Of a DNA stretch of 64,000 nucleotides, positions 341 to 64,000 are shown piece after piece. Below the pieces are notes generated by a model that saw nothing but the letters and a program-made list of their open reading frames with translations, did not search any database and was not told the origin of the DNA. The translations under genes were made by a program, and so were the position numbers. Positions within the stretch are counted from its first letter, which is position 1. The number at the start of each line of letters is the position of its first letter. The stretch is taken from the IMG/VR virus record IMGVR_UViG_3300046779_002065, positions 64,276-128,275 of that record, one strand, 5' to 3'. Origin of the DNA: a virus.

Positions 341-3300
341 TTAGTTACATTTTGTTGATTCATCAGTCTTAGACTGAAGTACTTTATCTACCGAGTCAGT
401 TTTGAAGAGCTGACTAAACTCATTAAATATTCCACGGTTCTTTGCTGCCTCATCTGCTGCATCGTTCATCTTGTGACCGCTGTGACCTTTAACCCACTCA
501 AGTTTGACACTTCCGCCGTTTGCCTCGATCATCTCGATGCGCTCGATAGCTTTCTGTACGAGGTATTGGATGTATGGTTCTTTTGCTTTCCAAGGTTTTG
601 GTTCACGCTGAAGAGATCCTTCACTGCGCTCCCAGAGAGCACCGTAGTTTACAGCACCTTTGTAGTCCTGGCGGATAACAATATGTTCGCTGCTGTTCTT
701 AAATGAATCCAGGGTCATCACCAGACCAAGCATCTCCATGGTAGGATTGGAGAACTTAGTTCCAGGAAAGAGAGCTTGAAACGACTTCATAGCTTTGCTT
801 TCCTCTGTTCCGCTCATCTTGTACATCTGACCGTTGAACTCAACAGCTGCTCCATATCCAAGTTTACCGGTCCCTTTAATGTCGCTTCCGTCTACAAAGA
901 TTTCCAGTGGAGTTGCTGGAGTAGAAAGTATTACAGGAGTAGACTGTTGAGGTTGAGTTGCAAGTTGATCCATTATTTTAGCATACTCTTCTTTTGGATT
1001 AACACCGCCTCTTGACAAAATGTGTTTCATTCCTTCTACTGATTGAAACCCATTTTCTTTAAGTTTATTGATAAACGGCAAATATTGTCTGTTTGTTAAA
1101 TCTTCAGCAACAAATACAGCATACTGTAATCTGCCTTCAATTAAATCATTTACTCTATCATTGAAAGACTCAATTTGACTTTTTCTTAATACTTGTGAAT
1201 TACTTATAAAAGTAAAAGAGGTTTTGTCTGCATACTCTTTTAATGTTGTAGAAGAATTAAATTGAGTGTTTAGTACAGCTTTACCTAAGAATGACAGATC
1301 TATTCCTGGATAGAGTTCACCCAACGCTGCGCGATTCACCCGGTCTTCATACTGACCATAGTTTTCACCGACTTGTTTTGGACCCAACACAGCATGCTGA
1401 CGTTCATGTTCCATAACAAAGGTTTCCCACTCTTCATACGATTTAAAAATATCTTCAGGGAATGCCGTTGCATAAGAATTATCACGTTGCTTCAGCGGGT
1501 TTGTCCAAGCTTTGTCGTAGTATTTCTCTCTTAACAAATTACGGTTAAGCACAATGGTGTTATCACCTCTTCTGAATTTAGCACCACCAGGTTCGTTGCT
1601 TCCTTCACGCTCAAGAGATTTTGAATCAATCACCGTGATACCTTTATAAGTACCACCTGTTTCATCAATGCTGTTTATCTCAGGTTTAGCAGTACCTCTA
1701 GCATATTCATTCAGTTTGATTGCCTCATCTACTTCAAACGCAAGTGGATTGATATTAGAGTCACCCTGACGGCTTACTAACTTATACACTGCTTTGTTTC
1801 CGACAAATGGATTGGATGTGTTTACATCTGCTATATCCGCCTGGTCAGGATTTGCTTTGTTGTAGATCTGATCAAGTAACTTAGAACCTAATCCTTTGTC
1901 ATCAACTTCACTGAGGATTAATAAATCTCCATAGGTGTTGGTAACAAACAATGGGAAGCTGTATTTCTTTTCTCCAGTTTCCTTATTTGCTTTACGAGGG
2001 AAAATCTTGTAATGCATTGCAATAGCATCCTGAACCTGTTGTTCTTTAGCATCAGCAGGTTTCATGGAGATCATTACTTCATTGTTTTCATCAAGCAAGA
2101 ACAGGTCATTGTTAGACGGATTTGTTTTACCTTCTTTGACACTTCTGTCCTGGTTTGTCTTATATTCACGTTTACGCTCTGTAAACGGATCATTGAGGTT
2201 CTTTGCTTCAGCAATAATCTTTTCACCCATTCCAGGACGAATGCTTTTGATTGCTGCATGCATAGCTGCTTCACCATACTCCGTAAACTTGCCACGGTCA
2301 TTGCTGTAGTTTAATACTTTCACAGCATTCTCATCTGGTACAGGATTGTAAATACTTACTGCTTTTTGAACAACGTCATCAATCAGTGTATCTACATCAC
2401 CCTTTTCATCTAGAATACTTGCAAACAAACTATTAAACTTGCTTTTGTATTCCGCTTGGTTCTGTGCTTTGGTTTTGCCAAACTCATCCAGTTCATTAAA
2501 CGCTTTCTCAATCTTCTTGAGTTCACCGCTGATTTCTCTAAAGTTATCAGGGTTTAGGAATGGACGCAAGCTGTAAGGTGCTGCTCCCATACCGTCTTTG
2601 ATGATTGTATAATAAAACATCTGGTACGCTGCCTCACGAACTGTCGGATCTGCATTGGTAAGAAGTTGGTCCAGTCCGTTCATGATCATGGTCTGACGAT
2701 CTTTTGACAGCTTCACTTTACTGATGCTGCGCATGATCTTTAACCCTTTGTCAGTCTTATGCGGAACAATAGATTTGATAAATGCGTTTTCAGGAAACTG
2801 AGACTTTAAACGGTTCATGATGTTAAACATGTCGTTGTTGTACCAGTAGTCTGCTTTAAGCATTTGCTGGAAACTCTTGTAACGTGCATACACTACAGGA
2901 GACTTCTCTTTGAACGAAGGATCCGCCAACGCTTTGTTGATGGTATTCTTCAGTGCATTGAGTGCTAAATAGTTCTTGATATGACCAGCTATCTTATCTG
3001 GAGTCGCTTCAAAGATGGCAGCATTTAACTGTCTGCTCAGTTCTTTGATGATAGGACTTCTCTCCAAGAACATCTTACCCAGTACTTCATCCATCAGTTC
3101 AACACTAGCTCCTAGTTTGTTATACACCGGACTTTCGCTAAAGATGTTGTTAAACCCTTTAAATGAACTTGCGTTTCTGTCTCTGCTGTAAGTTTCCATT
3201 AAACGATCTACGGCATTGAAGTCAGGTGCTAGAGATTTCTGTGCGTCGGTTAATGGAGTTAACTCAAAGCGGATTGCTTCAGCCTGTTCGTACTGCTTGA

Positions 3301-6300
3301 TATATGCTGCAAGAATTACGACGTCTTTCATCTCTTGAGTAAGGATGCTTCCGTCATTAGCAACAATCTTTAATCCCAAAGAATCTACGGTAGGATTGTC
3401 ACTGTTTGCTACGTTTGCATCGACATTGTTTACATCGAATTCAAACGTATAGTCACTTAAATCAAATGATTCAGCAAATTCAATCAGACCGAAGTTAGTT
3501 GCCTTTTCCGTCTTTCCCTTCATCTCCAACAGACGTTTAGTCAACGCGTTGTTCATGTAGGTACCCAATGCCATACCATGCTTTCTACTACGACGAACAG
3601 AACCTTCTGTCTCCGCCATGTATTTATCAATGGTGCTTTTTACACTAGGCATCAAATTAATGTAGATGCTCAGGTATGGATCAATACCCAATGATAACAT
3701 CGTAGCTGTTACTCCCATGTTGTACTGGTTAAGAGACAACACGGCAGGATAAGGTTTCTTAGCAGCATCGGCACTCATACCCAGAGAGTTTCCAATCAAT
3801 GCGTGTGCACGCTCTGCGCTTGGATCGGATTTCTCCGGAGTAAAATTCTCATAAACCTTACCGTTGATATTCCACAATGGTTCAGTTAATTCCAATCCAT
3901 GTTTAACGGCAACACTCAATGCTTTATTAAACGCGGCAAAGATTTCAATACCACGCTTTGCACTTTTGTTGGAGTCACGAACATTTGCTACAGACGTAAT
4001 CGTTGCAAAGTTGCTTTGTCCAATCGTATCTTTTTCATCACGACCCAGTGTCTCTACAGCATTCTTATAGATATCTGCGTTGGAAGATTCTTTACTGTAC
4101 AGATTATCAAAGACGTGTTTGTGTCCAAGAATCTGATTCATCGTTTTGGTAATCTCGTTCTGGATATTGGGAATTACCGGAGAACCATTTACTTTCTCGT
4201 AGCTAGCCAGGTCATCGGCAGTCACCGGCATTCCAGAGTTCTGAAGCACGTTTACTACGGCAGCTACCTTCTCCAGGAGACGAAGCTGACGCTGTAGTTC
4301 AACACTTTGTTCATCCTGCTGGGTTTCCATGACCTGTGCAAGATCTTCCAGGGACGTAAATGTCCTACCCAGTGGTGCAATCTTCTTATCGGAAAGCAAA
4401 TCACGGTAGCGGTTCTCCATAGATTTCTCTATGTCAGCCATGGATTGGTTGAAGAACTCCTGCACTTTAGGACCAAACATTGCAGAACTTTCTTTCAAGT
4501 TCTCAATCTGGTATTCCTTATCCTCGCGCATACGACGCAGCTCTTTGCTCACCAGTGGACCAAAGAACGGATCGTCCATCATGTAATGGAGATACTCAAC
4601 GAATTTTGCAGTCTTGGTATCTAACCCATAGCGGTTCTCATATTCAGAATAATCACCATAGATGTTTAGCTCACCCAATACGTTCTCGTACGTACCCATT
4701 ACACGGGCGTACAATGCATCGATATCTTTATCAGAACCAGAGAGGTAATGCACCTGTTCTGGAACAACAATCGTATTGATATAGGTCGCATCAATGTATC
4801 CTGCTACTTTCACGCGCACCATCGAACGTTTATCCTCTGTAGGAATACGTGTTGCAAAGAACTCCTCCATGGATTTCTCAATGACTCTGAGTTTGCTTGG
4901 GTTGGTAGTAGTAGGACGAGGAATCAATACTTCCACGTAATAGTCTTCGTTACCATTTTCGTCAACTGTTTTTCTAAAAGATGGGTAACGGGTTTTGTAA
5001 TTTTTGTATTTACCAGGGTTCTTACGAATCAGGTAGTCTGGAACCGGCTGATCGTTTTCATCCACAATGATTTTATAACCAAAAGAAGAACCGTGGTAGA
5101 ATTTGAAACCAGGTGCTTTTGGTTGGAACATGGTAGAGTTTGCCATGGAGAACACATAGTACTTCAACGCCTCGGTGATCCCGTTCAAGTTGGTACTGTG
5201 TACAGGCTGACCATCCACTACATCCCACATCTTGAGCATGTTTTGTGGTGCACCCTGTTTCTGCAACGACTCTTGGATTAGTTTAAAGAAGCTGGCAACA
5301 TCGATTTCTCCGTCTTGCTTTACAATACGCTCAAACTTCATCCGTGCGTTAAACGACATGTCGCTCAACAGCTTACGATACTTGATCACCAGGTCTTTTA
5401 AGTCTTGAGGAACATTTGGATCCTTTAAGTCTAAGTCTGTATCGATCAACAACTTAGGTTGAATAGAGTCCGTCACATCATGGTGATGCGCTTCCGTAGC
5501 TACCTGGTTATAAGCATAACTCATTGGAATGGTTGCCACGTTGTTTCCTAGATCCCAGTACCCGCTAGCATTTTCAAGTTCTTCTACGCTGGTTACGTAC
5601 GGAATAACGGTACCACGCTTGGAAGCACTGTTGTCAGATACTTGTCCAAGACGGTGGAATTCCATATTGTTCAAAATGCTGTGCAGCATTTCTCTTCCGT
5701 TTATAGGAACAAACTCCTCGTGAATCTTAGTGATTGTATCACGGTAAAGCTGCTCTATTGACTCATTGTTCTCGTTTACTTCTTTTCCCATGTCTAGCTG
5801 ACCTTCATAGAGATCGGCTAGTTTGTATAACTCTGCTACGCGTAAACGCGCTGCTTTGGTATTTGAATCCTTGTAATAGCTTACAGTAAAACGGTTAATG
5901 TAATGCTCACTCATCTTGAGGTAATGAATCGGATGAGCAGTTACCGTCTTCTGTGGATTTAACTGGATACCACGACCATTTAAATATTCAATGTCTTCCC
6001 AGGATACTTGTTTGTAGCGAAGGGAACGAATGATGCTGTCGGCACGTGCGTCTTTTTTACCTTCTGCATTCAAGAAGTTCAAACGGTGATTGAGTCGTTG
6101 GTATACGTGACCATCCAGGATAGAAAACTTCTCTGCATTCTCTACATCGGATTGATTATGAGACTGCGCTTTGGTGATGTCATTTTTATCAAAGAACACC
6201 GGCATCTCTTTTTCTACATCCTTTGCACCTGCAATAGTGATAACAGCGTGTCGGTAGGTAATGTTACCTGCCTGGATCAGCATGCTTGCTGCCTCAGCGT

Positions 6301-9300
6301 TTTTACCAGCTGCCGCCTGAGATTTCAAACGCTTGTAGTAATCTACCGCATTTGCAAGACCCAGTGCTTTGTCACCGTCAAATAACTGATTAACCAACAA
6401 TCGGTTAACCCAGTCATTGAAAAAGTAATCTTTTAAGAACTTATCAGTAGTAGTAATTGAGTTCGCTTTAGATACACCGTTCTCCTTGTAGTTTGTATCA
6501 AAGAATTCACTGCTGTATCCTTCTTTTGTCTTGTTGACGATTTTAGCTTTCTCCATGCTCTCCATGAAGAAATCAAACTCATCCTGAGCATACATATCTA
6601 ACTGCTCAAATAAGCTTGACATGGCAGGCAATGCTAATGCTTCTTCAAAAGATTTACCTTCTTTAGCAGCAGCAATCAGCGTCTCACGCATCTGCGTTCT
6701 GGCAGCTACGTTTTCATCACTGATCGATGTGTCTGTTGGATCAATATCGTTTAAGAAGAAGCTGTCCAATTGATGGAACTGGTATGCTCTGAGTTTAGCA
6801 CTTTCAGTATCCACCGTGTTGTCAGACAAAAGAATACCGTTATAATCTTTGTAACGGAGTTTGTTTTCATGACGTGACGCCCACTGATTACCAATACGAC
6901 TGTACTCTTGTTTAATCAGATCACTAAGACGTTTGCTGATTAAGCTGACTTTCTTGGAATTAACTTCCGTCTTTACAGCTGCATTATTGGTGGTGTACTG
7001 CTCATAGCGACCGGTTGTGTGAAACAACGTTCCGGTAGCGTCATTCTGAGACGTAATACGTTTAAAGGTTTTTAATTCTTTACCTCCGCGTTTGTACGAT
7101 TTACGATCTGTAAACAACGCAAGGTTGGAAAGATGAATACCAATCTTGTCAAGATCTGCGGCATCTGTGTTGATCGATCCGGTGTCGTCGATATTTTGAG
7201 AAAGACCACCGAGGTATCCAACTTTTAAATAATCCAGGAAGAGTTCTCCCAATCCATCCTCTGACAGATATGGGTTGTTATCAAACCAGCTTAGGAACTC
7301 AGGACCATATACCTCTAGGACAAACTGACGAAGTCCCTTTGATTGTACGTCCTGCACAACCTGCATGTTTGGAGAGTACAGGGTAAAGCGGTATATCTTG
7401 TTGCCTGTAGTGTTCATGACCACCGGCTGACCAATCGTTGAGTCATAGCGGGTGAGGTACGTCATGGAAGGTAAGAAACTGGCAACGACGCTTTTACGGG
7501 TTTTGTTATCTTTGTTTTCAAACAATGGAACAGACCCTGTGTAGCTAAACATGTACCACATAGCTTTCAGCATGCTGGTAGTCATGTATCCTTTTTCTTT
7601 AAAGATGTCGCTGTTTGCAAGCAACACTGCTCTGGCGTTGCTACCGTCAGGTAAACGATACCCGCTTTCGGTAATCAATGCCGCCAAAGAGAAATGGAAG
7701 AAGTGACGTGGAATACCAAGTCCTGCTTCTGCAGTGATTACATACAAGTCATCGGCAAACTTGTTCACCTTGGCGTCCGAGAACTCACCATTCTCCAGGT
7801 AAAACTCAGAGATGTTTTTACCATCGTCGCTTAACTCTCTGCTTAGAAGCGTTAAGTCATTCTGGATTTTCTGTTTGTCTTCTGCAGAAAGTGCTGTATA
7901 ATTATTGTTGTATCCGTCAATGATACGGTTGAGTGCCTGGAAGTTATCCTGGGACTGCACCATATCCACGGTGTTTAATTCACTCTTTATAGTGATACCA
8001 CTAATTTCAAAACTTCTGCTGGTTTTAACATCCACACGGGTAATCTCACCACTTGCTACATAGAACACGCTGTGAAACTGGTTGAACATTGCTTCAGAAC
8101 GGGTCGGTTTACCATCTACAATTCCGCAGGTGGTATCCAACATCTTCATCATCGCTTTAAGACTCTCTGCCAACTGATACACGGATTCATATTCCACCGG
8201 GTAACGATAGTTCATGCGACTACTCAAGCGACTCATATTAGACAAGTCTTCTTCCAATGTCTTAATCACTTGTCTGATCTGTGGAAGCAAGTCTTTCTTT
8301 CCAACATTTACCGTGATCTTTTTAACAGTGTCAAACAACCTGTCGGCATCTACCGGGCGACGCATGGTAACGCCAAACATGTCTTCCTGTTCATAAACCA
8401 GGAACTGGAAAATCTTACGGAACTCACGGTCTCCTTCCGAAGTACCTGTTTCCAGTAATCCAAGATCCGGATCCTTTGCACCTGATTCTTCTACATCATT
8501 GTTAGCTTTAGCAAACGCCTCTGCTGTATTCTCACCAGTAACCTGGTCTGAAGCAGCAGCCTGTTCTATCGTATCAATAACGTTCAGATTGTTGTACACC
8601 TCCAGGACCAACGCCTTCATCTGGCGGTAACTTTCTTCCGCACTTTTTGTGTAGGTTTCACCCGTCTCGTTTCCAATGTACTTGTTATCATAGTTTGGAT
8701 CACCTGTAAGGTTTGCTACCGGGAATTTCTCCCCAAGTTTCATAGAACCCAACACGTATCTAAAGTCACGGAGTTTGTTTTCATACGTCTCCCTGATCAC
8801 ACGTTCAGCACTTGGATTCTGACTGATAAAGTTCTCAATGTTATAGTATGACACCATGGTCTTTGCAATCTGATCGTACAAATCAGACGTAGTAATTCCA
8901 GCAGATTTACTACGGAGCATCTCATAGACCATCATATTGCGCAACTCCATCATCTCATCAGCGTTCATACTGTTAGGGAAACGAACAATTTTATCGTTTA
9001 GTAATCCCATGGTAGGAACTGTCTTGATCAATGCATACGCACCTTCGACACCAGTGTATTCTTTTACGGTTGCATTCTTGTAATATCCGTTATGAATACG
9101 GTCGAATGTTTTTTCGAGTTCATCCTTGTGCTTGGTAAAGAAGTCAAGCAACGACTGGATAAGGTTAAATAATTTCTGGTACCAGGTTTCTGCTTTGGTT
9201 TTCTTGGTCGCATACTTCTGGAATTTGTCTGCCATGCGTTCCTCCGCCATCAATTCAATGACTTCGGTGTTGCTCATGTGTGCAAGACCACGACGTTGCT

Positions 9301-12300
9301 TACGGAACTCCGCAATCTGAGATTCAGAGATGATTCCCATCTTCTCGTATTCACGACGTAATAAGTCAGCGCGCTCTTGTGGACTCAACAAATAACGGAA
9401 CACAGCATGGAACGCTTCATGGTAAGCAGTTCCTGGGTTGGAAAGATTCTTACTGAGGTAAATCACTTTGTCCTTGATATACCCCAACACGTTTCCTTCA
9501 GCATCCAGGTGACGGACAATCTTCTCCAAATCGTCAATTGCAATCCCTGCAGGCAGACGATCACGGATGTAATCTACCTGGCGTTGAAATTCATCCTGCT
9601 CAAAGGCAGAACGCTCCAGAGCAGTACCCAAAGAGAAGGTTCCATCAAACTCATCAATGTCATCCAATGGGGTGCTGCCTGCAGCAGGAGTATTGTTTGG
9701 TGCTACACTTGGTTTCTTTTTATCTTCAAATGAAACATTTTCCTCACCAAAGGACGGCAATACTTCATTTTTAGGCATTGTTGCTGCATCTTCCAATGCA
9801 TGCGGGAAGTTGTAATGCAGGTTAAGACGTGTCTTGTAGTGTGCTTTTACAGTGTAATAAGTATCGAGGTTACTGGATTTTGTCGTACGGTCATTAAGTG
9901 CCACAGACGGTTGCAATCCTTGTTTGGATACAAAGAGTTGTTGCATGAACTCTTTCTTGTCACCCATCATACGTTCTGCCATCTCGCGGACGGTAGCATC
10001 TTCGTTATTGAGTAAGGCGTCTATTTTCTTTTCAAAGTTCTTTAACAGTTTCTTTTCCAATGAACTGTACGCCTTTTCAATTTGCTGTTCCAGCATTTGT
10101 ACAGATTCTTTATCGCTGCCATACTTGAGTAATCCGTCCAATTGATCAAACATCTTCTCCATTCCTTCAGGGGTAGATGTATCAGCAGGAAGACCTTCTT
10201 TTTTAAAGAACTCTTCTACCGCGCTGGTGATGTCTTTAAGGACGCTGTCACCAACCAAGAAGCTTAACTTAGACGCATGCTCGTTGAAGAACTCTGCATC
10301 CGGGTGACTGTCCAATGCCGTAAACTGAACACCCAAAAACGTTTTACCGTCCTTGGTCATGTTGACAAAGAAATCAGGTTGGATCTTACGGATAACGTCA
10401 AATCCTAATATGTTGTTATTAAAGTTTCTGTAGTACGGAGTGGTTGCTGTAGTCTTATCAAATCTGCTATAAAACCCAAATAGAGACAACAACGCTTTTG
10501 CTTTGGTAGTTGCATTTGACGGTGTCTTGTCCCTCATTAATGGAACGACTGCATAGCTTCCTGTCCTGGAAGGAACAATCATGGCGTGTTTGTATCCAGT
10601 GAGCTTGCTCAAGTTAGCAATCACTTTACCAGCTTTGGGAAGTTCAAACTTCTCTACGTATTCTTTCCATTTGTATTTAACACCTTCTACCAGGATAAAT
10701 TCACCTGGTCCAAGTAATTCTACCGGCATGTAGGGTGCACCCTTTGTAGAAGACACTGCCTGGAAAAGAAGTGGTAAACGACGTTCCATCACATTACCCG
10801 GATCGTTCTCATTAATTACCGATACGGTAATACCACTCTCATGAGCAGCCAGGAACTGGTCCAGACGCTTGTCTTTTAAACGGTCTTCAAAGTTTACTTT
10901 ATCAGAAAAATCTACAGCATATACTGTATTGGTCAGTTCATAATATTTGTTGAAAAGCTCTGCAGGTATTTGGGTTTCTCCTTTGTCAAGCAATACTTGC
11001 ACTTCTGCTTTGAACTCTTTAAATCGACGTGCACCATCGCGAAGCATTTGAAGATCTTCCAGTGATGTTGGACGTATGGTGGTCTCTGTTGTACCTACGC
11101 CTCCACGCACCTGGGTGAGCGTAGCAAATAAACTCAAGTCTTCCTCATTCTCCAGGTCAAGTAAACGAGTCGTGTTATCCGGATAAACAACCACGTAGTT
11201 ATTAAAATCCATCAACGTTACAGTCTTACCGGTAGGAGAGACCATACGAATGGCAAACCCATCGGTCATACGACCACGCGTAAGAATGACCTTACCACTT
11301 TGTAATGCCATGATTTGTGCAGGCGTCTCCCGGGTCTCGATGGTACGGTTTGCTAAACTTGGGTATTGATCCGTAGCATTCTGGATCATTTGCATACGGG
11401 ATGCGTTACGCTGTGCACCCGTGCTATCAGCAATGATAGTAACCAGATTGGATGGAGAAACATTTGCACCGGAGAGTTCTTCCGTAAATGCGTCGACATC
11501 TTCCCCGATCATAACAAGTCCCGTGCGCAGTTCACCTGCGTCTACAAGAACAGTAGCACCGTCGTTTGCAATAAAACGCGTATTTGGTACATTAAGTTTT
11601 TTAGGTTTTGGATTGTTGTCAAGTACATAAAGCTCTCCTGTAGACTGGAGGTTCTCATCAGCATAGAAATATTCTTCCCCTTCACGGATCAGATCCACCA
11701 CGGTACCATCACTCAAGTACACCTCGTAGTGATTGGTTCCAAATCCTGGTAACGTACGCAAATCCACATAGCTTGCCATGTTGTTGCTATTACGAACCAG
11801 TGCAATGGCATCTTCTAACTTGCGTACAAAATCGCGTCTTACTCTTTTGTCCTCAATAGAGTTGTTTACTTTGTCCAGTGCGTTTCGTAAAATCTTTTCG
11901 CTGTTCAGTTCATTGGTTTCATTTAAACCAGCGTCCAGTACAGCACGCTCCCTGACAATCGTATCGATAGCATTCTTAACCGCACTGTGACGTTTGATCA
12001 CAGGGGATTCCAATGCTTCAGACAATTGTGCAGCAAGTTCTTTAGTACGTTTATTTTGGGTGGTCTCTTCGCTGCTTGTAATACCTAGGTGTTCCTGGAG
12101 AAGGTTTAACGCCTGGGTAAAACGATTTGCATCCAGACTGGTGTCATTTACCAGTGGATACACGGTCGCATCAATAAAACTATCCAGCTTGTTCAGTTCA
12201 AAGACTGTAGACTTCTTGGATAATTGTTTGTACAACTCGCTGTAAGCAATGATAATATTGCTCTTAGCTTCGTCGGTGAGATTAGTCAGCTTAACAATAT

Positions 12301-12400
12301 CGCGAACTGAATTTTCGAGATTGCGATATTTTTCGGGATTAGTACGAAGTGCTTGTTGCAGCGCGGTGCGCAGCACTTTAGAATCTATAGTGCAGGACAT
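341..12400 (-). CDS. Giant virion-packaged two-barrel RNA polymerase (crAss-type) with zincin motifs and a C-terminal RNase H domain
   Basis: 4019 aa. RIPT motif followed by catalytic GSDKDID (DxDxD, 4718-4732). HEAFH at 9407-9421 and HERQH at 1394-1408. RNase HI motifs at ~435-910. Lies among giant cargo genes as in Crassvirales. Confidence 0.88.
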   Translation of the reverse strand: MSCTIDSKVLRTALQQALRTNPEKYRNLENSVRDIVKLTNLTDEAKSNIIIAYSELYKQLSKKSTVFELNKLDSFIDATVYPLVNDTSLDANRFTQALNLLQEHLGITSSEETTQNKRTKELAAQLSEALESPVIKRHSAVKNAIDTIVRERAVLDAGLNETNELNSEKILRNALDKVNNSIEDKRVRRDFVRKLEDAIALVRNSNNMASYVDLRTLPGFGTNHYEVYLSDGTVVDLIREGEEYFYADENLQSTGELYVLDNNPKPKKLNVPNTRFIANDGATVLVDAGELRTGLVMIGEDVDAFTEELSGANVSPSNLVTIIADSTGAQRNASRMQMIQNATDQYPSLANRTIETRETPAQIMALQSGKVILTRGRMTDGFAIRMVSPTGKTVTLMDFNNYVVVYPDNTTRLLDLENEEDLSLFATLTQVRGGVGTTETTIRPTSLEDLQMLRDGARRFKEFKAEVQVLLDKGETQIPAELFNKYYELTNTVYAVDFSDKVNFEDRLKDKRLDQFLAAHESGITVSVINENDPGNVMERRLPLLFQAVSSTKGAPYMPVELLGPGEFILVEGVKYKWKEYVEKFELPKAGKVIANLSKLTGYKHAMIVPSRTGSYAVVPLMRDKTPSNATTKAKALLSLFGFYSRFDKTTATTPYYRNFNNNILGFDVIRKIQPDFFVNMTKDGKTFLGVQFTALDSHPDAEFFNEHASKLSFLVGDSVLKDITSAVEEFFKKEGLPADTSTPEGMEKMFDQLDGLLKYGSDKESVQMLEQQIEKAYSSLEKKLLKNFEKKIDALLNNEDATVREMAERMMGDKKEFMQQLFVSKQGLQPSVALNDRTTKSSNLDTYYTVKAHYKTRLNLHYNFPHALEDAATMPKNEVLPSFGEENVSFEDKKKPSVAPNNTPAAGSTPLDDIDEFDGTFSLGTALERSAFEQDEFQRQVDYIRDRLPAGIAIDDLEKIVRHLDAEGNVLGYIKDKVIYLSKNLSNPGTAYHEAFHAVFRYLLSPQERADLLRREYEKMGIISESQIAEFRKQRRGLAHMSNTEVIELMAEERMADKFQKYATKKTKAETWYQKLFNLIQSLLDFFTKHKDELEKTFDRIHNGYYKNATVKEYTGVEGAYALIKTVPTMGLLNDKIVRFPNSMNADEMMELRNMMVYEMLRSKSAGITTSDLYDQIAKTMVSYYNIENFISQNPSAERVIRETYENKLRDFRYVLGSMKLGEKFPVANLTGDPNYDNKYIGNETGETYTKSAEESYRQMKALVLEVYNNLNVIDTIEQAAASDQVTGENTAEAFAKANNDVEESGAKDPDLGLLETGTSEGDREFRKIFQFLVYEQEDMFGVTMRRPVDADRLFDTVKKITVNVGKKDLLPQIRQVIKTLEEDLSNMSRLSSRMNYRYPVEYESVYQLAESLKAMMKMLDTTCGIVDGKPTRSEAMFNQFHSVFYVASGEITRVDVKTSRSFEISGITIKSELNTVDMVQSQDNFQALNRIIDGYNNNYTALSAEDKQKIQNDLTLLSRELSDDGKNISEFYLENGEFSDAKVNKFADDLYVITAEAGLGIPRHFFHFSLAALITESGYRLPDGSNARAVLLANSDIFKEKGYMTTSMLKAMWYMFSYTGSVPLFENKDNKTRKSVVASFLPSMTYLTRYDSTIGQPVVMNTTGNKIYRFTLYSPNMQVVQDVQSKGLRQFVLEVYGPEFLSWFDNNPYLSEDGLGELFLDYLKVGYLGGLSQNIDDTGSINTDAADLDKIGIHLSNLALFTDRKSYKRGGKELKTFKRITSQNDATGTLFHTTGRYEQYTTNNAAVKTEVNSKKVSLISKRLSDLIKQEYSRIGNQWASRHENKLRYKDYNGILLSDNTVDTESAKLRAYQFHQLDSFFLNDIDPTDTSISDENVAARTQMRETLIAAAKEGKSFEEALALPAMSSLFEQLDMYAQDEFDFFMESMEKAKIVNKTKEGYSSEFFDTNYKENGVSKANSITTTDKFLKDYFFNDWVNRLLVNQLFDGDKALGLANAVDYYKRLKSQAAAGKNAEAASMLIQAGNITYRHAVITIAGAKDVEKEMPVFFDKNDITKAQSHNQSDVENAEKFSILDGHVYQRLNHRLNFLNAEGKKDARADSIIRSLRYKQVSWEDIEYLNGRGIQLNPQKTVTAHPIHYLKMSEHYINRFTVSYYKDSNTKAARLRVAELYKLADLYEGQLDMGKEVNENNESIEQLYRDTITKIHEEFVPINGREMLHSILNNMEFHRLGQVSDNSASKRGTVIPYVTSVEELENASGYWDLGNNVATIPMSYAYNQVATEAHHHDVTDSIQPKLLIDTDLDLKDPNVPQDLKDLVIKYRKLLSDMSFNARMKFERIVKQDGEIDVASFFKLIQESLQKQGAPQNMLKMWDVVDGQPVHSTNLNGITEALKYYVFSMANSTMFQPKAPGFKFYHGSSFGYKIIVDENDQPVPDYLIRKNPGKYKNYKTRYPSFRKTVDENGNEDYYVEVLIPRPTTTNPSKLRVIEKSMEEFFATRIPTEDKRSMVRVKVAGYIDATYINTIVVPEQVHYLSGSDKDIDALYARVMGTYENVLGELNIYGDYSEYENRYGLDTKTAKFVEYLHYMMDDPFFGPLVSKELRRMREDKEYQIENLKESSAMFGPKVQEFFNQSMADIEKSMENRYRDLLSDKKIAPLGRTFTSLEDLAQVMETQQDEQSVELQRQLRLLEKVAAVVNVLQNSGMPVTADDLASYEKVNGSPVIPNIQNEITKTMNQILGHKHVFDNLYSKESSNADIYKNAVETLGRDEKDTIGQSNFATITSVANVRDSNKSAKRGIEIFAAFNKALSVAVKHGLELTEPLWNINGKVYENFTPEKSDPSAERAHALIGNSLGMSADAAKKPYPAVLSLNQYNMGVTATMLSLGIDPYLSIYINLMPSVKSTIDKYMAETEGSVRRSRKHGMALGTYMNNALTKRLLEMKGKTEKATNFGLIEFAESFDLSDYTFEFDVNNVDANVANSDNPTVDSLGLKIVANDGSILTQEMKDVVILAAYIKQYEQAEAIRFELTPLTDAQKSLAPDFNAVDRLMETYSRDRNASSFKGFNNIFSESPVYNKLGASVELMDEVLGKMFLERSPIIKELSRQLNAAIFEATPDKIAGHIKNYLALNALKNTINKALADPSFKEKSPVVYARYKSFQQMLKADYWYNNDMFNIMNRLKSQFPENAFIKSIVPHKTDKGLKIMRSISKVKLSKDRQTMIMNGLDQLLTNADPTVREAAYQMFYYTIIKDGMGAAPYSLRPFLNPDNFREISGELKKIEKAFNELDEFGKTKAQNQAEYKSKFNSLFASILDEKGDVDTLIDDVVQKAVSIYNPVPDENAVKVLNYSNDRGKFTEYGEAAMHAAIKSIRPGMGEKIIAEAKNLNDPFTERKREYKTNQDRSVKEGKTNPSNNDLFLLDENNEVMISMKPADAKEQQVQDAIAMHYKIFPRKANKETGEKKYSFPLFVTNTYGDLLILSEVDDKGLGSKLLDQIYNKANPDQADIADVNTSNPFVGNKAVYKLVSRQGDSNINPLAFEVDEAIKLNEYARGTAKPEINSIDETGGTYKGITVIDSKSLEREGSNEPGGAKFRRGDNTIVLNRNLLREKYYDKAWTNPLKQRDNSYATAFPEDIFKSYEEWETFVMEHERQHAVLGPKQVGENYGQYEDRVNRAALGELYPGIDLSFLGKAVLNTQFNSSTTLKEYADKTSFTFISNSQVLRKSQIESFNDRVNDLIEGRLQYAVFVAEDLTNRQYLPFINKLKENGFQSVEGMKHILSRGGVNPKEEYAKIMDQLATQPQQSTPVILSTPATPLEIFVDGSDIKGTGKLGYGAAVEFNGQMYKMSGTEESKAMKSFQALFPGTKFSNPTMEMLGLVMTLDSFKNSSEHIVIRQDYKGAVNYGALWERSEGSLQREPKPWKAKEPYIQYLVQKAIERIEMIEANGGSVKLEWVKGHSGHKMNDAADEAAKNRGIFNEFSQLFKTDSVDKVLQSKTDESTKCN

Positions 12401-58718: not shown

Positions 58719-59101
58719 GGTTCCACACTTAAAAACTGGTAGTCAAGTAAAATAGCACCACTGTCTGAGCGTATCAGTTCAGGAGTGACCATCACTTGTT
58801 TCTTACCTTTCTTTTGTTTGATCATCAAGCCGCGTTTTTCAAGCTTGACAACCCGGTTACGTACGTTTTGCGAACGCTTAGGGAGATCATAAGGGTCTAC
58901 ATCGGTGTAGATATGGTTGGCAGCTTTCTCACAGAAGGCTGTCAAATCCATAGGACCCCACAATGCAAGCAACGTGAGGAACTCCAGATCACTGGGGATC
59001 ACGTGTTCCTTGCGTAGAAACGCAATCTCCATAAGCAACTGACACCGCAACATGTCCTGTCGCGATACCCTTAGCTTTTTTGAGATCTTCGTTACCTGCA
59101 T
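58715..59101 (-). CDS. Winged-helix DNA-binding protein
   Basis: SQNVRNRVVKLEKRGLMIK is a wHTH recognition helix plus wing. Confidence 0.6.
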   Translation of the reverse strand: MQVTKISKKLRVSRQDMLRCQLLMEIAFLRKEHVIPSDLEFLTLLALWGPMDLTAFCEKAANHIYTDVDPYDLPKRSQNVRNRVVKLEKRGLMIKQKKGKKQVMVTPELIRSDSGAILLDYQFLSVEP

Positions 59102-59137
59102 CGGTGTTGGTTTATGGGTCCTGTGTTGGTTTTTCTA

Positions 59138-59218
59138 TTACTTTTCTTCATCATGTCCAAGCACAAGTGCTAGTACAACAAATAGAACGACTACCAGAGG
59201 TGTATACTCAAGAGACAC
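59138..59218 (-). CDS. Possible 26-aa single-pass membrane microprotein
   Basis: GTG start, MSLEYTPLVVVLFVVLALVLGHDEEK*, filling the gap between two genes. Confidence 0.35.
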   Translation of the reverse strand: MSLEYTPLVVVLFVVLALVLGHDEEK

Positions 59219-59456
59219 TTTCTTCAGTGGTTGAAGCATCTTCCTGCTCCTGTTGGTTTACTGGAGATTTTGCTGCCGGAGGGTTGGTGAAATAGGCATA
59301 CTTAGCAACTGCTTCAATGCGTTTGGTTTCTTCTTCCTGGATTTCTCTGCGGAGGATAGCATATTTTAATTGGTACTCCAACAAAGTGATCTGTTCCTTG
59401 TAGTGAGCAACCATCTCCGCGACGGTTGGGATCTTTTTTTCTGATTCAGTAGTCAT
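59208..59456 (-). CDS. Hypothetical coiled-coil protein, first gene of the leftward unit
   Basis: 82 aa with an AAAAACC-ATG leader. Confidence 0.65.
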   Translation of the reverse strand: MTTESEKKIPTVAEMVAHYKEQITLLEYQLKYAILRREIQEEETKRIEAVAKYAYFTNPPAAKSPVNQQEQEDASTTEESVS

Positions 59457-59541
59457 GGTTTTTGTAAGGTCTACAATACAAATCTACAAAAAAAGTTTAA
59501 ACTCTACAAATTTAACCTTAAAGTTCTTTAAATTTGTAGTT
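59457..59541. promoter_or_regulatory. Divergent promoter region
   Basis: Inverted repeat CTACAAATTTAA (59504-59515) / TTAAATTTGTAG (59528-59539); each arm gives an outward-facing TAAATTTG matching the Bacteroidota TAnnTTTG -7 box. A further TAGATTTG lies on the minus strand at 59479-59486. Confidence 0.65.
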
Positions 59542-59931
59542 ATGGAAAAGGTAGACCAATTACTATTCGTACCTGCTGCAAGTGGGACGATTCTGGAGAG
59601 CCTGCACGGACACTGTCCAAAGTGCGGTGATAACTTACAAGGTCCTGATGTAAAGACTTATTTTATTGAGGACTTGATTAACAGAAAATATGAGGGGGAT
59701 GTGCATGCAGAAGCAGAGAGACTTGCCGCATTATACGGCTGGACAAAAGAAGCTCCGGTACATTTTAGCAACATTATAGGGATTGCCCTGCCGGGTAGTC
59801 CCGATGATTTTATACTACACCAGTGTCCAACTTGCGAGACGACCTGGGATAAATTCACCAAACGCGAAGGAACCTATGAAATTCCTGGTCCCGAAGTACC
59901 TAAAATATCTACAGAAGATGTCCAAGAATAA
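59542..59931 (+). CDS. Zinc-ribbon protein
   Basis: CPKC...CPTC. Likely start MEKVDQ at 59542. Confidence 0.65.
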   Translation: MEKVDQLLFVPAASGTILESLHGHCPKCGDNLQGPDVKTYFIEDLINRKYEGDVHAEAERLAALYGWTKEAPVHFSNIIGIALPGSPDDFILHQCPTCETTWDKFTKREGTYEIPGPEVPKISTEDVQE

Positions 59932-60445
59932 GTTTATTGATTTTTACACAGAGCATGATACCATCTATCAACTCTGTCAGTTGATCTACAACCGCAGCCG
60001 GGAGAACTTTACCCCTTCCAATACGGTGATCTTAAATGTCAGTCCGGATTACTCCAGCATTTTTGCGATGCGCCTGGCGCACTACATGAGTGCAGAAGGA
60101 GAAGTGATGGAGATGGTTAACGTGGACGTTCCATATCCCGATGAGCTGGACATGGTTTACAAGCAGGAGTTTTATTTAACTCTTAGAAATTTAAAACGTC
60201 GGTTTAAGAAGTTCATCCTGTGTGAAGCAGCGGTGCTGACGGGTAAGAACTACACCTGGATGGTAGAGATGATGGTTGCTGAAGGGATCCAACCTGAAGA
60301 CATCATGACCACGGCATTGTTCCAACGTCATGACAGCATTTTTGATACGCAGTATGTGGGTCAGCTGTTCCAGGAGGACATGATTGAATTTCACTGGGAG
60401 AAGTATAACAAGCACTGGGATGAGCAACGTACAGAAAAAGATTAA
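59918..60445 (+). CDS. Phosphoribosyltransferase-fold protein (degenerate PRPP loop)
   Basis: KKFILCEAAVLTGKNY resembles VLIVDDxxxTG; C-terminal YVG...IEFHWE. Likely start at 59918. Confidence 0.55.
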   Translation: MSKNKFIDFYTEHDTIYQLCQLIYNRSRENFTPSNTVILNVSPDYSSIFAMRLAHYMSAEGEVMEMVNVDVPYPDELDMVYKQEFYLTLRNLKRRFKKFILCEAAVLTGKNYTWMVEMMVAEGIQPEDIMTTALFQRHDSIFDTQYVGQLFQEDMIEFHWEKYNKHWDEQRTEKD

Positions 60446-60842
60446 ACCGGTGTTTGCCTGGGCATGTGCAGAGATATACAAGCAGAATCTTTGGATATCG
60501 ATTGGACAGAGCGACAAGCAGTTTTACAATTCTTTGATGAAGAATGTGATGAACCTGTCTAAAGAAGAAGCACAGGAAGTTGTCCTTGAAATGAAACAAC
60601 GCACGTCTCGTCACCATGGATTGTTCATGGGTAGTCAGGGGTTGCACCTGATCCGACTGTATATACCTGCAGACATGAATAACCCATCTTTTCATGGGGT
60701 ATTGGCACATGAAGTGCTGCACGCTACTTGTCACCTACTCCGGGAAAGAGGTATGGAATTGTGTGAAGAAAGCGAAGAAGCATACACCTACCTCAATGAC
60801 TTCTTCATTACCAAAATTTATAGCGCATTAGTAAAAAAATGA
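60420..60842 (+). CDS. Zincin-like HExxH metallopeptidase
   Basis: LAHEVLHA...EEAYTY. Confidence 0.7.
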   Translation: MSNVQKKIKPVFAWACAEIYKQNLWISIGQSDKQFYNSLMKNVMNLSKEEAQEVVLEMKQRTSRHHGLFMGSQGLHLIRLYIPADMNNPSFHGVLAHEVLHATCHLLRERGMELCEESEEAYTYLNDFFITKIYSALVKK

Positions 60843-61252
60843 AATTATTATCTACACATCCCGTCAAGAAACTTGATTTAGGGTTTCATGGAAATCTTTT
60901 TGGCGGACAATTATTATCCTGGATTGATGCTGCTGCCGCAGCATACGCAATGGAGTACTGTCACTCCAAGAACATGGTCACGATTGCCATTGACAAGTGT
61001 GTCTTCAAGAAACCTGCAAAAGAAGGTAACCTGGTAAAGATCTACGCTGAGATGGTAAAGATTGGCACCACCAGCTGCATCTTTGAAGTGCAGGCACGCG
61101 TGTACAATGTATTCACCGGAGAGGAAACACCTATCTTAACCACCAACATCAGCTTTGTACGTATCGATGATGAGGGAGGACCCATTCCGATCAGTGACCA
61201 GGTACGTCGGAATTTTCAAGCATTAATGGACAAAAAGGAGGTTACTGAATGA
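60839..61252 (+). CDS. Acyl-CoA thioesterase (HotDog, YciA-like)
   Basis: HGNLFGGQLLSWIDAAA...VTIAID...FKKP...GTTS...FVRID..G.P. Confidence 0.9.
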   Translation: MKLLSTHPVKKLDLGFHGNLFGGQLLSWIDAAAAAYAMEYCHSKNMVTIAIDKCVFKKPAKEGNLVKIYAEMVKIGTTSCIFEVQARVYNVFTGEETPILTTNISFVRIDDEGGPIPISDQVRRNFQALMDKKEVTE

Positions 61253-61662
61253 AACATGCAACATTATACATGGACCTGGCAACCCGTATTTCTCATGAAT
61301 CAAAATGCACCCGGTTGAATGTGGGTGCTGTAATTGTGAAAGAGAAAAACATCATAGCGTTCGGCTGGAACGGAATGCCTACCGGATTTCCCAATGCTTG
61401 TGAAGTGGACAACGTTACCAACCCCGAAGTGATCCATGCCGAAGCAAACGCAATCCTCAAAGCTGCCCGATCTACGGAGTCAACAGAGGGAGCAACTTTG
61501 TTCTGCACGCATAGCTGTTGTGTGGAGTGCGCCAAGATGATCATCCAGTCCGGGATAAGCAAGTTCATCTACCAGACTCAGTATCGAGACGACGCTGGGT
61601 TGAGATTACTTCATCGTGCTGGTATTGAAGTGGAGCAATTTGACCCACCCTGTATCCTTTAA
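61249..61662 (+). CDS. dCMP deaminase
   Basis: VGAVIV, GWNG, HAEANA and CVECAK. Confidence 0.92.
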   Translation: MKHATLYMDLATRISHESKCTRLNVGAVIVKEKNIIAFGWNGMPTGFPNACEVDNVTNPEVIHAEANAILKAARSTESTEGATLFCTHSCCVECAKMIIQSGISKFIYQTQYRDDAGLRLLHRAGIEVEQFDPPCIL

Positions 61663-61685
61663 AAATACTACCCCTATAGTTACTC

Positions 61686-61712
61686 AACCCCTGGTACCCC
61701 CGGGGGTTTTTT
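61686..61712 (+). terminator. Intrinsic terminator
   Basis: AACCCCTGG-TACCC-CCGGGGGTT followed by T4. Confidence 0.7.
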
Positions 61713-61886
61713 ATGTCCCCCCTGGTATCCGGTACAGCATGAATGGTCACTGGAATGTTATGGGTGAGAGAGGGGTAGTACCACCTAGGTGACTGCGTCC
61801 CCCTCGGAGTATGCTAGACCCCACCCCCCGTGTTTTGCTACTACGCTTCGCTGCGTAGCTGCAACAACGGTGTGTGTGCGTCAACT

Positions 61887-61916
61887 AAAAACATCAGGCT
61901 GCGCCGTGATGTTTTT
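61887..61916 (+). promoter_or_regulatory. Candidate hairpin early promoter 1
   Basis: AAAAACATCA-GGC-TGC-GCC-G-TGATGTTTTT. Confidence 0.6.
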
Positions 61917-61967
61917 TGGGTAGATAGTATGACATCGTCATATCTACACATTTAAATAGTATTAGAC

Positions 61968-62351
61968 ATGAGTACAATCAAATTGAAAGCGACATTCGAG
62001 CGCACGACGAAAACCGGTTACCTTTACACCGTATCATCATTTAGCCGCGATGCTAAGACAGCACAAGCGGACATGGATTTCTTTCACGAGAACTACACCG
62101 AGTTGAGCACAACTGGTTCGCGTGCTGAAGGGTGCTTCTATTCGGACGAATTATTTCCGAAGAAGTTCGGATCAGCGACGTTGACCTACGATGAGAACAC
62201 TAAGACGGGTAAATCGTACTGGAACATCAATGCTCCGGATGCATTACTCGAAGAGGCAGCGATTCACAAGATGCTGAATCGTAACTCGAACCGTAGTGCT
62301 GCGCCTGTTCGCAAGCAAGCCGAGATCGAGCAAGACGCTGACCTCGATTAA
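61968..62351 (+). CDS. Early protein, possibly SSB-like
   Basis: 127 aa, beta- and aromatic-rich, with an acidic tail EIEQDADLD. Confidence 0.55.
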   Translation: MSTIKLKATFERTTKTGYLYTVSSFSRDAKTAQADMDFFHENYTELSTTGSRAEGCFYSDELFPKKFGSATLTYDENTKTGKSYWNINAPDALLEEAAIHKMLNRNSNRSAAPVRKQAEIEQDADLD

Positions 62352-62358
62352 TTAGAAC

Positions 62359-62388
62359 GCACTCTCCTTCGGGGGAGTGCTTCTTTTT
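62359..62388 (+). terminator. Intrinsic terminator
   Basis: GCACTCTCC-TTCG-GGGGAGTGC-TTCTTTTT. Confidence 0.85.
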
Positions 62389-62419
62389 CTCTCATGCTAT
62401 TACTACCTAACTAAGACCT

Positions 62420-62653
62420 ATGAAAACAATGATAACATACTTCGGAAAGGCACTACTTCTCATCGTAGTACCAGTAACATTTTGCTTAATCTTAGTAATT
62501 GGTTTCAGTGCATTGATTGCATTCGTTGACCAATTCGATAAGAACACAGTATTCGTTGACACATTCAGAGAGATGATGAAACATGGTTTCATCTGGATAG
62601 TGTCAATATTTGCTACACTAGGTTTCACTGCACTCTTTTTCTCTGAGCATTAA
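62420..62653 (+). CDS. Two-TM membrane protein
   Basis: 77 aa with two hydrophobic segments. Confidence 0.65.
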   Translation: MKTMITYFGKALLLIVVPVTFCLILVIGFSALIAFVDQFDKNTVFVDTFREMMKHGFIWIVSIFATLGFTALFFSEH

Positions 62654-62695
62654 GAGTTGCAGTGCAACAGCGTTAAACTATTAACGCTTTCATGG

Positions 62696-62719
62696 GAAGC
62701 AAGGCTGCGCCGTTGCTTC
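62696..62719 (+). promoter_or_regulatory. Candidate hairpin early promoter 2
   Basis: GAAGCAA-GGC-TGC-GCC-G-TTGCTTC. Confidence 0.6.
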
Positions 62720-62765
62720 ACCTAAAAAATATAACATGGTTATAGTCACACCTATATGTTATACT

Positions 62766-63092
62766 ATGAAACCTACAGATATCTACACATCAAAACCGTA
62801 CTTTACTGGCAAAGAATTAGGTATAAGTAAATACCTAATCATATCTCATGATAGTTTCAGTTTTATCAGCAATGATTGCAGTAACAACTTATACGTAACA
62901 ACATCACGTAGTTATCACTATGAGGACATGAAAACTTCTTATGCTGAAGTAGTGCATGCTTATGTTACTAAATCCTGGGATGATTTCTGTCTATACATAG
63001 ATGAACTCTTAGAGATTCATGCACATGATGAAATTGCATACATCATGCAACGTGAGTACGAAGACTATTACGCGGATCAGGACGATGATTAA
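62766..63092 (+). CDS. Hypothetical early protein
   Basis: Likely start MKPTDI at 62766; acidic C-terminus. Confidence 0.6.
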   Translation: MKPTDIYTSKPYFTGKELGISKYLIISHDSFSFISNDCSNNLYVTTSRSYHYEDMKTSYAEVVHAYVTKSWDDFCLYIDELLEIHAHDEIAYIMQREYEDYYADQDDD

Positions 63093-63096
63093 CCAC

Positions 63097-63131
63097 AGCA
63101 CAGAGAACAATCTCTCTGTGCTTTTTCTTTT
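63097..63131 (+). terminator. Intrinsic terminator
   Basis: AGCACAGAGA-ACAATC-TCTCTGTGCT-TTTTCTTTT. Confidence 0.85.
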
Positions 63132-63134
63132 CAT

Positions 63135-63160
63135 TGAAGCAAAGCTGCGCTGTTGCTTCA
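63135..63160 (+). promoter_or_regulatory. Candidate hairpin early promoter 3
   Basis: TGAAGCAA-AGC-TGC-GCT-G-TTGCTTCA. Confidence 0.6.
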
Positions 63161-63212
63161 CTTGAATATAGAGTATTGCATAGTCATAGTCACACAATTA
63201 AAAAGCAGAAAC

Positions 63213-63737
63213 ATGGAAAAACTTATTCAATTCGCATTAGCGACCAAATTTGGTGAAGACAACGTTAATTTTATCATGCAAGTTATCACAGCAACTCCAA
63301 GTCCTGAAGTTGCTACTGAAATACTATTAGGACTTTATGAGAGACCTGAAATTGATCGCACAGATGAAGTATTACATTATGCAGGTGACGATAAGACTAA
63401 CATTCGTTACAGCATGTATGATGACTTCACCAAAGAGGTTCATTTCTCTTACCAAAGAATTATTAAAAGTTCTGCATGGTTTGAGAAGAATCCTTCAGGA
63501 GTGGTTATCACTTCTGAAGAGAAAATCATCAGCGACAAGTATTGGGCAGAGGATGCTGCACGAGTATTGAAGATGAGCACTGAAGATTTCAATGAGAAAT
63601 ACGAACGTCTCGTATATCACACTGAAGTTGAGAAGCACGCTCGCAATGCTACTAAATCTGTTACTGATTGGAACGAGTACGTTCAGAAGTGCGAGACATT
63701 CTCACACGTTGAGGTAACAGGCGGCGTCATGCTTTAA
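63213..63737 (+). CDS. Hypothetical early protein
   Basis: Likely start MEKLIQ at 63213 after an A-rich leader. Confidence 0.65.
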   Translation: MEKLIQFALATKFGEDNVNFIMQVITATPSPEVATEILLGLYERPEIDRTDEVLHYAGDDKTNIRYSMYDDFTKEVHFSYQRIIKSSAWFEKNPSGVVITSEEKIISDKYWAEDAARVLKMSTEDFNEKYERLVYHTEVEKHARNATKSVTDWNEYVQKCETFSHVEVTGGVML

Positions 63738-63742
63738 CACCG

Positions 63743-63773
63743 AACAGAGAGGGTAACACCTCTCTGTTTTCTT
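63743..63773 (+). terminator. Intrinsic terminator
   Basis: AACAGAGAGG-GTAACA-CCTCTCTGTT-TTCTT. Confidence 0.8.
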
Positions 63774-64000
63774 CTTCGCTTTCACACAATGGTCTCGCTT
63801 CGCTCGGGTTTATTTCCACGGTGCAAACAAGTTTGCTAACCGTGGTCCAGCACAGCTTTCTCCAGCATCGATTTCCCCAGCACCGTTGTCCGGGTACGCA
63901 GCGCGTACGGGTCCGAAGTCGATCCTTGTCCGTCCAACGGAGTACGCTTCGGTTACTTGTCGCGGCAGCGCATCGTCGGAGTTCTCTCCAGGAGAAGTAA

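Follow-up and report, generated by a model that had tools for sequence, protein, structure and literature searches.

Covarying hairpins with template-strand GNA triloops as candidate early promoters of a crAss-type virion RNA polymerase in an uncultured freshwater phage

The hairpin elements at the right end of a 64,000-base stretch of DNA from an uncultured freshwater crAss-like phage (record IMGVR_UViG_3300046779_002065) were evaluated as possible transcription signals. The viral record is 128,275 base pairs (bp) long, and its final 64,000 bases constitute the stretch under analysis, which is termed the window. Four hairpins (c0, c1, c2 and c3), together with a box about 40 nucleotides (nt) downstream, are candidate early promoters that would be read by an injected virion RNA polymerase of the crAss type. 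This interpretation, drawn from the sequence, is placed just on the favourable side of even. The hairpins are organised as follows, with the 5' outer arm, the inner stem and triloop, the bulge and the 3' outer arm separated by slashes.

61887-61916, + strand: hairpin c1, AAAAACATCA / GGC-TGC-GCC / G / TGATGTTTTT, with a 10-bp outer stem and the bulged G at 61906.
62696-62719, + strand: hairpin c2, GAAGCAA / GGC-TGC-GCC / G / TTGCTTC, with a 7-bp outer stem and the bulged G at 62712.
63135-63160, + strand: hairpin c3, TGAAGCAA / AGC-TGC-GCT / G / TTGCTTCA, with an 8-bp outer stem and the bulged G at 63152.
Record 376-399, past the window end, + strand: hairpin c0, GGTGTGG / GGC-TGC-GCC / G / CCACACC.

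Three hairpins with an outer stem, an RGC-TGC-GCY core and a bulged G had been reported in a first-pass annotation of the window, at 61887, 62696 and 63135, and they were located at these positions. The number of copies was four rather than three. The plan was the same in all four copies: an outer stem, fully paired over 7-10 bp, enclosed the core RGC-TGC-GCY and the bulged G. All were intergenic, lay on the + strand and were co-oriented with the genes that follow. The outer stems had been described as different from each other. All of them paired, but c2 and c3 shared one stem, so that three different stems occurred among the four copies, and the c0 stem was unrelated to the rest. In c3, the inner stem did have the compensatory double change from G-C to A-T. 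The template strand read GC-GCA-GC in 4/4 copies, as claimed (C-GGC-GCA-GCC in c1), with the loop GCA in each. The additional copy, c0, was about 1.1 kb after c3, across an exact 127-bp repeat common to both ends of the record (window 63874-64000, identical to record positions 1-127). This repeat is suspected to be a k-mer overlap of the assembler rather than a true terminal redundancy, and the map was therefore handled as circular.

The specificity of the hairpins was explored by a record-wide scan for RGC-NNN-GCY enclosed by an outer stem of 5 bp or more, a 1-nt bulge being allowed. There were four matches, which were c0-c3, all with the loop TGC, the bulge on the same side and the + orientation. 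The four were confined to one small region. Five C-GNA-G hairpins had 9 bp or more, all on one strand within about 2.7 kb; 100 dinucleotide shuffles gave 0.10 on average and never more than 2. The fifth, ATCCAC-TAC-GTGGAT, was at record 428-442, 40 nt past c0, and had the template loop GTA. The hairpin cluster was near the start of a long rightward block of genes. Moreover, in the alignment of the four copies, 40/40 base-pair cells were paired and 8/10 pairs had changed on both sides, in agreement with the covariation first proposed. This level of pairing and covariation was reached by 0/500 shuffles, and registers slid along the alignment paired at 32-71%. The unit had eight invariant columns in this phage, all of them in the hairpin core. 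Arms that vary around a fixed centre would be the reverse of a dimeric double-strand operator.

The template strands of c0-c3 were folded as single-stranded DNA with generic DNA parameters, the stability of the mini-hairpin being taken from the literature. Stem, bulge and triloop formed at -8.5 to -10.2 kcal/mol. The value for c1 was -10.2 kcal/mol (z -5.7, 0/200 shuffles as good), and the values for c2 and c3 were -9.1 and -8.5 kcal/mol, respectively. Several similar sequences were rejected. A fifth match to RGCTGCGCYG, at window 40344, was coding and had no stem. The bare heptamer GCGNAGC was at chance level as a signal; there were 27 occurrences of GCTNCGC on the + strand and 16 on the - strand, with about 16 expected for each. 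The GCTTCGC at 63797-63803, which had been offered as a related element after the last terminator, exists, but it had no flanking stem, was not kept in the close relative G001 (see below) and was within chance. A second inverted repeat after c1 (TATGAC-ATC-GTCATA) and after c2 (TATAAC-ATG-GTTATA) was not kept in c3 or G001 and is probably incidental.

The conservation of the hairpins was examined in relatives obtained by a portal search of the viral collection. Among the best 80 of 291 related stretches, G001 was the only close relative (portal 90% identical), and the others were 63-70% identical; G002-G005 (portal 64-68% identical) were compared as more distant relatives. L123, a metagenome contig close to G001, was reached through the first cassette protein (encoded after c1), which matched G001 alone in the viral collection and L123 alone in the metagenome collection. 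GenBank phages gave no DNA match to window 61700-64000. The region was syntenic in G001 and had three hairpins in the same orientation at orthologous places. The orthologue of the first cassette gene was preceded by AAAAGGC-TAC-GCCTTTT and the next gene by CAAGAC-TAC-GTCTTG; GTGGGGC-TTC-GCCCCAC occupied the place of c0 and was followed by the same secondary hairpin. The G001 stems were 6-7 bp long, had no bulge and were unrelated to those of the window phage, and the template loops were GTA, GTA and GAA, compared with GCA in the window phage. L123 kept the three hairpins of G001 letter for letter, and its hairpin-to-box spacers diverged. In the secondary hairpin L123 had TGC where G001 had TAC, so that the middle loop base alone was changed. 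Every template loop in the window phage, G001 and L123 was G-N-A closed by C:G, and all three loop differences between orthologous hairpins fell on the N of GNA. The resemblance to the promoters of phage N4 was therefore stronger than the first-pass annotation had claimed, as orthologous loops varied at the middle base only (GCA, GTA, GAA).

The gene of the proposed reading enzyme was found at the other end of the window.

341-12400, - strand: gene of a 4019-amino acid (aa) crAss-type two-barrel virion RNA polymerase, with the catalytic DKDID at residues 2557-2561 and a C-terminal RNase H domain at residues 3832-3988.

The assignment to the crAss two-barrel family, made in the first reading of the window, was supported by profile and translated searches. 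The profile of the 4019-aa protein matched phi14:2 gp66, which bears the annotation of catalytic RNA polymerase subunit, with an hhalign probability of 98.3% (E 2.2e-14, 897 columns). In a tblastn search of residues 1950-3100 against GenBank phages, 29/29 matches were crAss-like (best E 2e-14), and many fell under features annotated as RNA polymerase (catalytic) subunit. Asp2557, Asp2559 and Asp2561, of the metal-binding DxDxD motif, were invariant in 16/16 homologues; the six closest had DKDID, and the remaining ten had DFD(I/V)D or DLDID. DKDID was also present in two further homologues checked apart from the 16, and the literal DFDxD motif was absent from the 4019-aa protein. A profile search of the Protein Data Bank (PDB) sequences with the polymerase returned nothing, and PHROGs and Pfam named nothing in it beyond RNase H. 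PF00940, the family of T7-like polymerases, had no match in the record, which is a weak negative since 14/14 control genomes were also unmatched. The protein atlas gave a weak lead to PF05183 (RNA-dependent RNA polymerase, score 0.79). On these sequence comparisons, the phage carries a crAss-type two-barrel polymerase, with no sign of an N4-type enzyme. An invariant, zincin-like HExxH motif was also noted near residue 994 of the polymerase (994-998).

The position of the polymerase gene bears on its delivery. Terminase, portal and major head protein were named by PHROGs, all on the - strand, and giant open reading frames (ORFs) of 4019, 1634, 905, 1068, 655, 1038 and 1802 aa adjoined these genes. 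The polymerase is probably packaged in the virion and injected, as suggested by its place among giant virion genes and by the crAss-type portal, terminase and capsid genes. The RNase H tail (window 341-910, - strand) and the GNA hairpins co-occurred in the window record and G001, and G002-G005, which had the homologous polymerase core without RNase H, lacked both. The co-occurrence represents one lineage only and is no evidence of a functional link, so the self-contained system that had been built on the RNase H fusion was not supported.

The early promoters of N4 (P1-P3, Schitoviridae), read by the injected T7-like gp50, were the closest known parallel. A review of N4 describes a GC-rich heptamer that has its centre at -11 and lies between inverted repeats. 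Both extrusion and stability require the C:G closing pair and the 5' G and 3' A of the loop, the latter two forming a sheared pair, and the non-conserved stem bases need only pair (PMC4496689). The elements of the window phage were likewise short inverted repeats around a loop of 3 nt. Their template strand had a GC-rich heptamer in which C:G closed a 5'-GNA-3' loop, and for the variable stem bases pairing would be the sole constraint. As in N4, few copies were clustered ahead of the first small genes, and the phage had a giant polymerase that would be carried in the virion. In contrast to N4, the polymerase was of the two-barrel crAss type rather than T7-like, and the stems were 10-13 bp long with an invariant bulge (6-7 bp and no bulge in G001), compared with 5-7 bp in N4. 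Moreover, the loops were GCA, GTA or GAA in this phage and its relatives and GGA or GAA in N4, and a second conserved block followed the loop at a distance of 39-44 nt; transcription in N4 begins 11 nt from the loop centre. In c1, a start at 11 nt would fall inside the stem. Hence, as judged by this comparison, the element resembles the N4 signal in form only and is not a member of the N4 system, since the defining T7-like polymerase was not detected and the stems and box are arranged differently (stems longer and bulged, box distal).

The stability of the loop is documented for DNA. In the literature, GCGNAGC is described as extraordinarily stable, with N4 promoters and the primase sites of single-stranded DNA phages as natural cases (PMC13037366), and d(gcGCAgc), the exact core of this phage, as a very stable hairpin dependent on the C:G closing pair (PMC3201870). 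The cores were GC-GCA-GC in c0-c3 and GC-GTA-GC, AC-GTA-GT and GC-GAA-GC in G001. The d(GCGNAGC) mini-hairpin is a structural motif rather than a functional family, and the stability expected here is that of the published motif.

A second parallel was phi14:2, a Cellulophaga phage whose gp66 (PDB 6VR4) has the homologous polymerase core. According to the phi14:2 preprint, gp66 transcribes single-stranded or denatured DNA and double-stranded DNA hardly at all, and it makes the early rightward transcripts. The preprint found no common motif upstream of the early transcripts; its primer-extension end points (Supplementary Table 4, Extended Data Fig. 4c) could bear on this point. A hairpin promoter would fit these data, namely the single-stranded preference of gp66, the rightward early transcripts and the absence of a detectable linear motif. 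The layout was similar as well, with a rightward early block adjoining leftward virion genes. The non-coding stretch of about 360 nt after c0 recalls the highly expressed early non-coding regions of phi14:2, of which the preprint reports two, both intergenic. Unlike gp66, the polymerase of the window phage was about twice as long, had DKDID instead of DFDID and carried an RNase H domain; unlike the window phage, phi14:2 had no clustered C-GNA-G hairpins in its genome. The literature search found no paper linking hairpin promoters to crAss-like phages and no described promoter for the crAss-type virion polymerase. The word "promoter" is absent from a 2023 review of Crassvirales, and a 2026 paper on N4 structure treats the relation between the two injected polymerases as an open question.

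The hairpins were then related to the genes and terminators around them.

61968-62351, + strand: first cassette gene, 127 aa, no family, with homologues in relatives (12 protein clusters at E up to 0.001).
62766-63092, + strand: second cassette gene, no family; the ORF opens at 62736 and the likely start is 62766.
63213-63737, + strand: third cassette gene, 174 aa, no family.
61686-61708, 62359-62380, 63097-63122 and 63742-63769: strong intrinsic terminators that separate the units (terminator scan).

The hairpins had been placed about 50 nt ahead of gene starts, and the 3' ends of c1, c2 and c3 were indeed 51, 47 and 52 nt from the likely ATGs at 61968, 62766 and 63213, respectively. After c0, about 360 nt had no plausible ORF. 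The start of c3 directly abutted the T-run of the terminator at 63097-63122; hence, there is no room for another promoter upstream of c3. A role of the hairpins as intrinsic terminators was rejected, because the terminator scan scored none of the four and only c1 had a T-run. The sequence after c0 (record 400-760) was rich in CTCTCTCTATAGAGAGAG-type palindromes and had a block, GTTGCATTAGATRGCTA, common to G001 and L123.

The same layout can be read at the level of RNA. The hairpins may act as antitermination (nut- or put-like), processing or 5'-stabilising elements in read-through or upstream-initiated transcripts, which we regard as quite unlikely. Each hairpin precedes a gene with a strong intrinsic terminator, as antitermination needs; c1 is followed by a T-run, and covariation alone cannot separate DNA from RNA. 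However, a transcript holding c3 must first read through the abutting terminator, and the T-run was lacking in 3/4 copies, which are hence not terminators. Rfam gave no family match at E up to 1 in 61400-64000, and a tRNA scan of 59000-64000 found none. Furthermore, the conserved loop would be U-N-C in RNA, whereas the antisense DNA gives the C:G-closed G-N-A, a documented stable motif. To our knowledge, a U-N-C RNA loop has no special stability.

The box downstream of the hairpins was obtained from a MAFFT alignment, in which a loose block GTYR..YACAC was found 39-44 nt after the loop centre in 10/10 units of three records.

61937-61949, + strand: box of c1, GTCATATCTACAC, a candidate initiation region about 42 nt past the loop centre.
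62739-62751, + strand: box of c2, GTTATAGTCACAC, from the MAFFT alignment.
63183-63195, + strand: box of c3, GTCATAGTCACAC, from the MAFFT alignment.

As a stand-alone pattern, the 13-nt box was not specific and was discarded. The presence of the downstream block in 10/10 aligned units suggests a different division of roles, in which the box or another sequence is the real promoter for a host or phage-modified host polymerase and the hairpin is accessory, as a regulator site, a supercoil sensor or a barrier to read-through. This account is considered unlikely. It would agree with the absence of the hairpin family from distant relatives that share the polymerase, and with a sigma-70-like match, TTCACC-18-TATAGT, that overlaps c2. 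However, no other hairpin had such a match, and sigma-70-like matches in 59000-64000 were at shuffle expectation (10 compared with 9.7). The Bacteroidota -7 consensus is TAnnTTTG, and it was absent from the + strand of 61700-64000 and of record 1-800. The hairpin core, with its eight columns, was the sole invariant part of the unit in this phage, whereas the box was loose. Moreover, the varying but complementary arms argue for intrastrand pairing rather than a dimeric operator.

For the preferred interpretation, that of hairpin promoters of the injected polymerase, the following course of events is proposed. The phage DNA would enter the cell together with the 4019-aa polymerase, and negative supercoiling or transient strand separation would extrude the inverted repeats as cruciforms. 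The template arm, capped by the C-GNA-G triloop, would form easily and persist, and the opposite arm, with the loop TNC, would be weaker. The polymerase may recognise the invariant inner hairpin and the bulged C of the template strand, so that the outer stem need only pair. The exposed template would be transcribed from a point further downstream, probably the GTYR..YACAC box or the bases immediately after it, which would give leaders of about 20 nt, and each short unit would end at its own intrinsic terminator. The hairpin c0 would head a non-coding leader of about 360 nt and the long rightward gene block.

Several observations weigh against this interpretation. The geometry was unlike that of N4, with bulged stems of 10-13 bp and a box 39-44 nt from the loop centre, compared with 11 nt. 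The box was loose; the 13-nt pattern taken from c0 and c1 matched 2/4 copies, and its frequency elsewhere was close to that expected by chance. An RNA hairpin with a U-N-C loop would give the same pattern of conservation. The rightward genes start at about 59455 and continue for about 45 kb over the record junction, and neither the five rightward genes at 59455-61662 nor the block of about 45 kb after c0 carried a hairpin. In G001, the genome-wide hairpin count was not above shuffles (9 hairpins; shuffles averaged 3.6 and reached 9 at most), and its hairpins were distinguished solely by position and orientation. No clustered C-GNA-G hairpins were found in any of the four distant relatives, G002-G005, whether the minimum stem was set at 6 bp or at 3 bp. 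In phi14:2, three C-GNA-G hairpins of 5-6 bp were scattered outside the early region, and the scanned right half of crAss001, which holds the early genes, had one lone 6-bp hairpin. Hence, the hairpin family in its present form is not a general crassvirus signal. Public sequencing runs were also examined as contigs, and gaps in the cover of the stretch by runs X3, X4 and X6 were treated as uninformative. Support from RNA libraries consisted of one 170-nt contig of run X13, which was identical to part of the first cassette gene, could be DNA carry-over and shows neither start, strand nor transcription. A 39-nt piece of X13 that was 82% alike over c3, inside an otherwise unlike contig, likewise shows neither start, strand nor transcription.

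A wider proposal is advanced with reserve, at somewhat less than an even chance. Hairpin and box may be the long-sought promoter of the two-barrel virion RNA polymerases in an aquatic crassvirus clade, convergent with N4 on a GNA-capped template hairpin. If true, this would explain why gp66 transcribes only single-stranded DNA in vitro, and it would offer a defined template for biochemistry and structure work. Such a signal would be short and defined, so that the polymerase question could be tested in vitro with no need to culture the phage. Its confirmation would provide a clear example of unrelated polymerases converging on a structured-DNA promoter, and the earliest genes of uncultured crassviruses could then be recognised by it.

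The early cassettes appear to be shuffled at the repeated hairpins. In run X3, a variant contig joined 62717 to 63191, that is, the 3' arm of c2 to the leader of the third cassette, and the second cassette gene and c3 were lost. The joint had 32 other letters that resembled the downstream region of c1. The loss of the intervening gene exactly where the hairpin is repeated is what would be expected if the hairpins served in structure-specific recombination that shuffles small cassettes; alternatively, they may be single-stranded DNA signals for priming, similar to the G4 or ssiA origins. According to a review of mini-hairpins, elements of this type mark the priming sites of phages G4, St-1 and alpha3 and ssiA of RSF1010 (PMC13037366). 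Both possibilities are judged very improbable. Ordinary recombination between two near-identical 24-nt repeats explains the deletion, and the co-orientation of the hairpins, their 47-52 nt spacing and the single terminator per unit fit transcription units better.

Two further observations concern non-coding sequence. In the distant relative G004, two hairpins at 64924-64960 and 65040-65080, located between rightward genes, had different stems and shared flanks, with ATGTCC before and ATCT after; their loops, AAG and ACA, were non-GNA. In the window phage, a 178-bp non-coding stretch (window 61709-61886) lies between the terminator of the dCMP deaminase gene and c1. It has C-tracts and a palindrome, CTACGC...GCGTAG, around a GCTTCGC heptamer (61845-61851). 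The stretch could be the site of the physical genome end or a packaging site. It was recognisably conserved in G001 and L123, and CGCTTCG was kept in all three.

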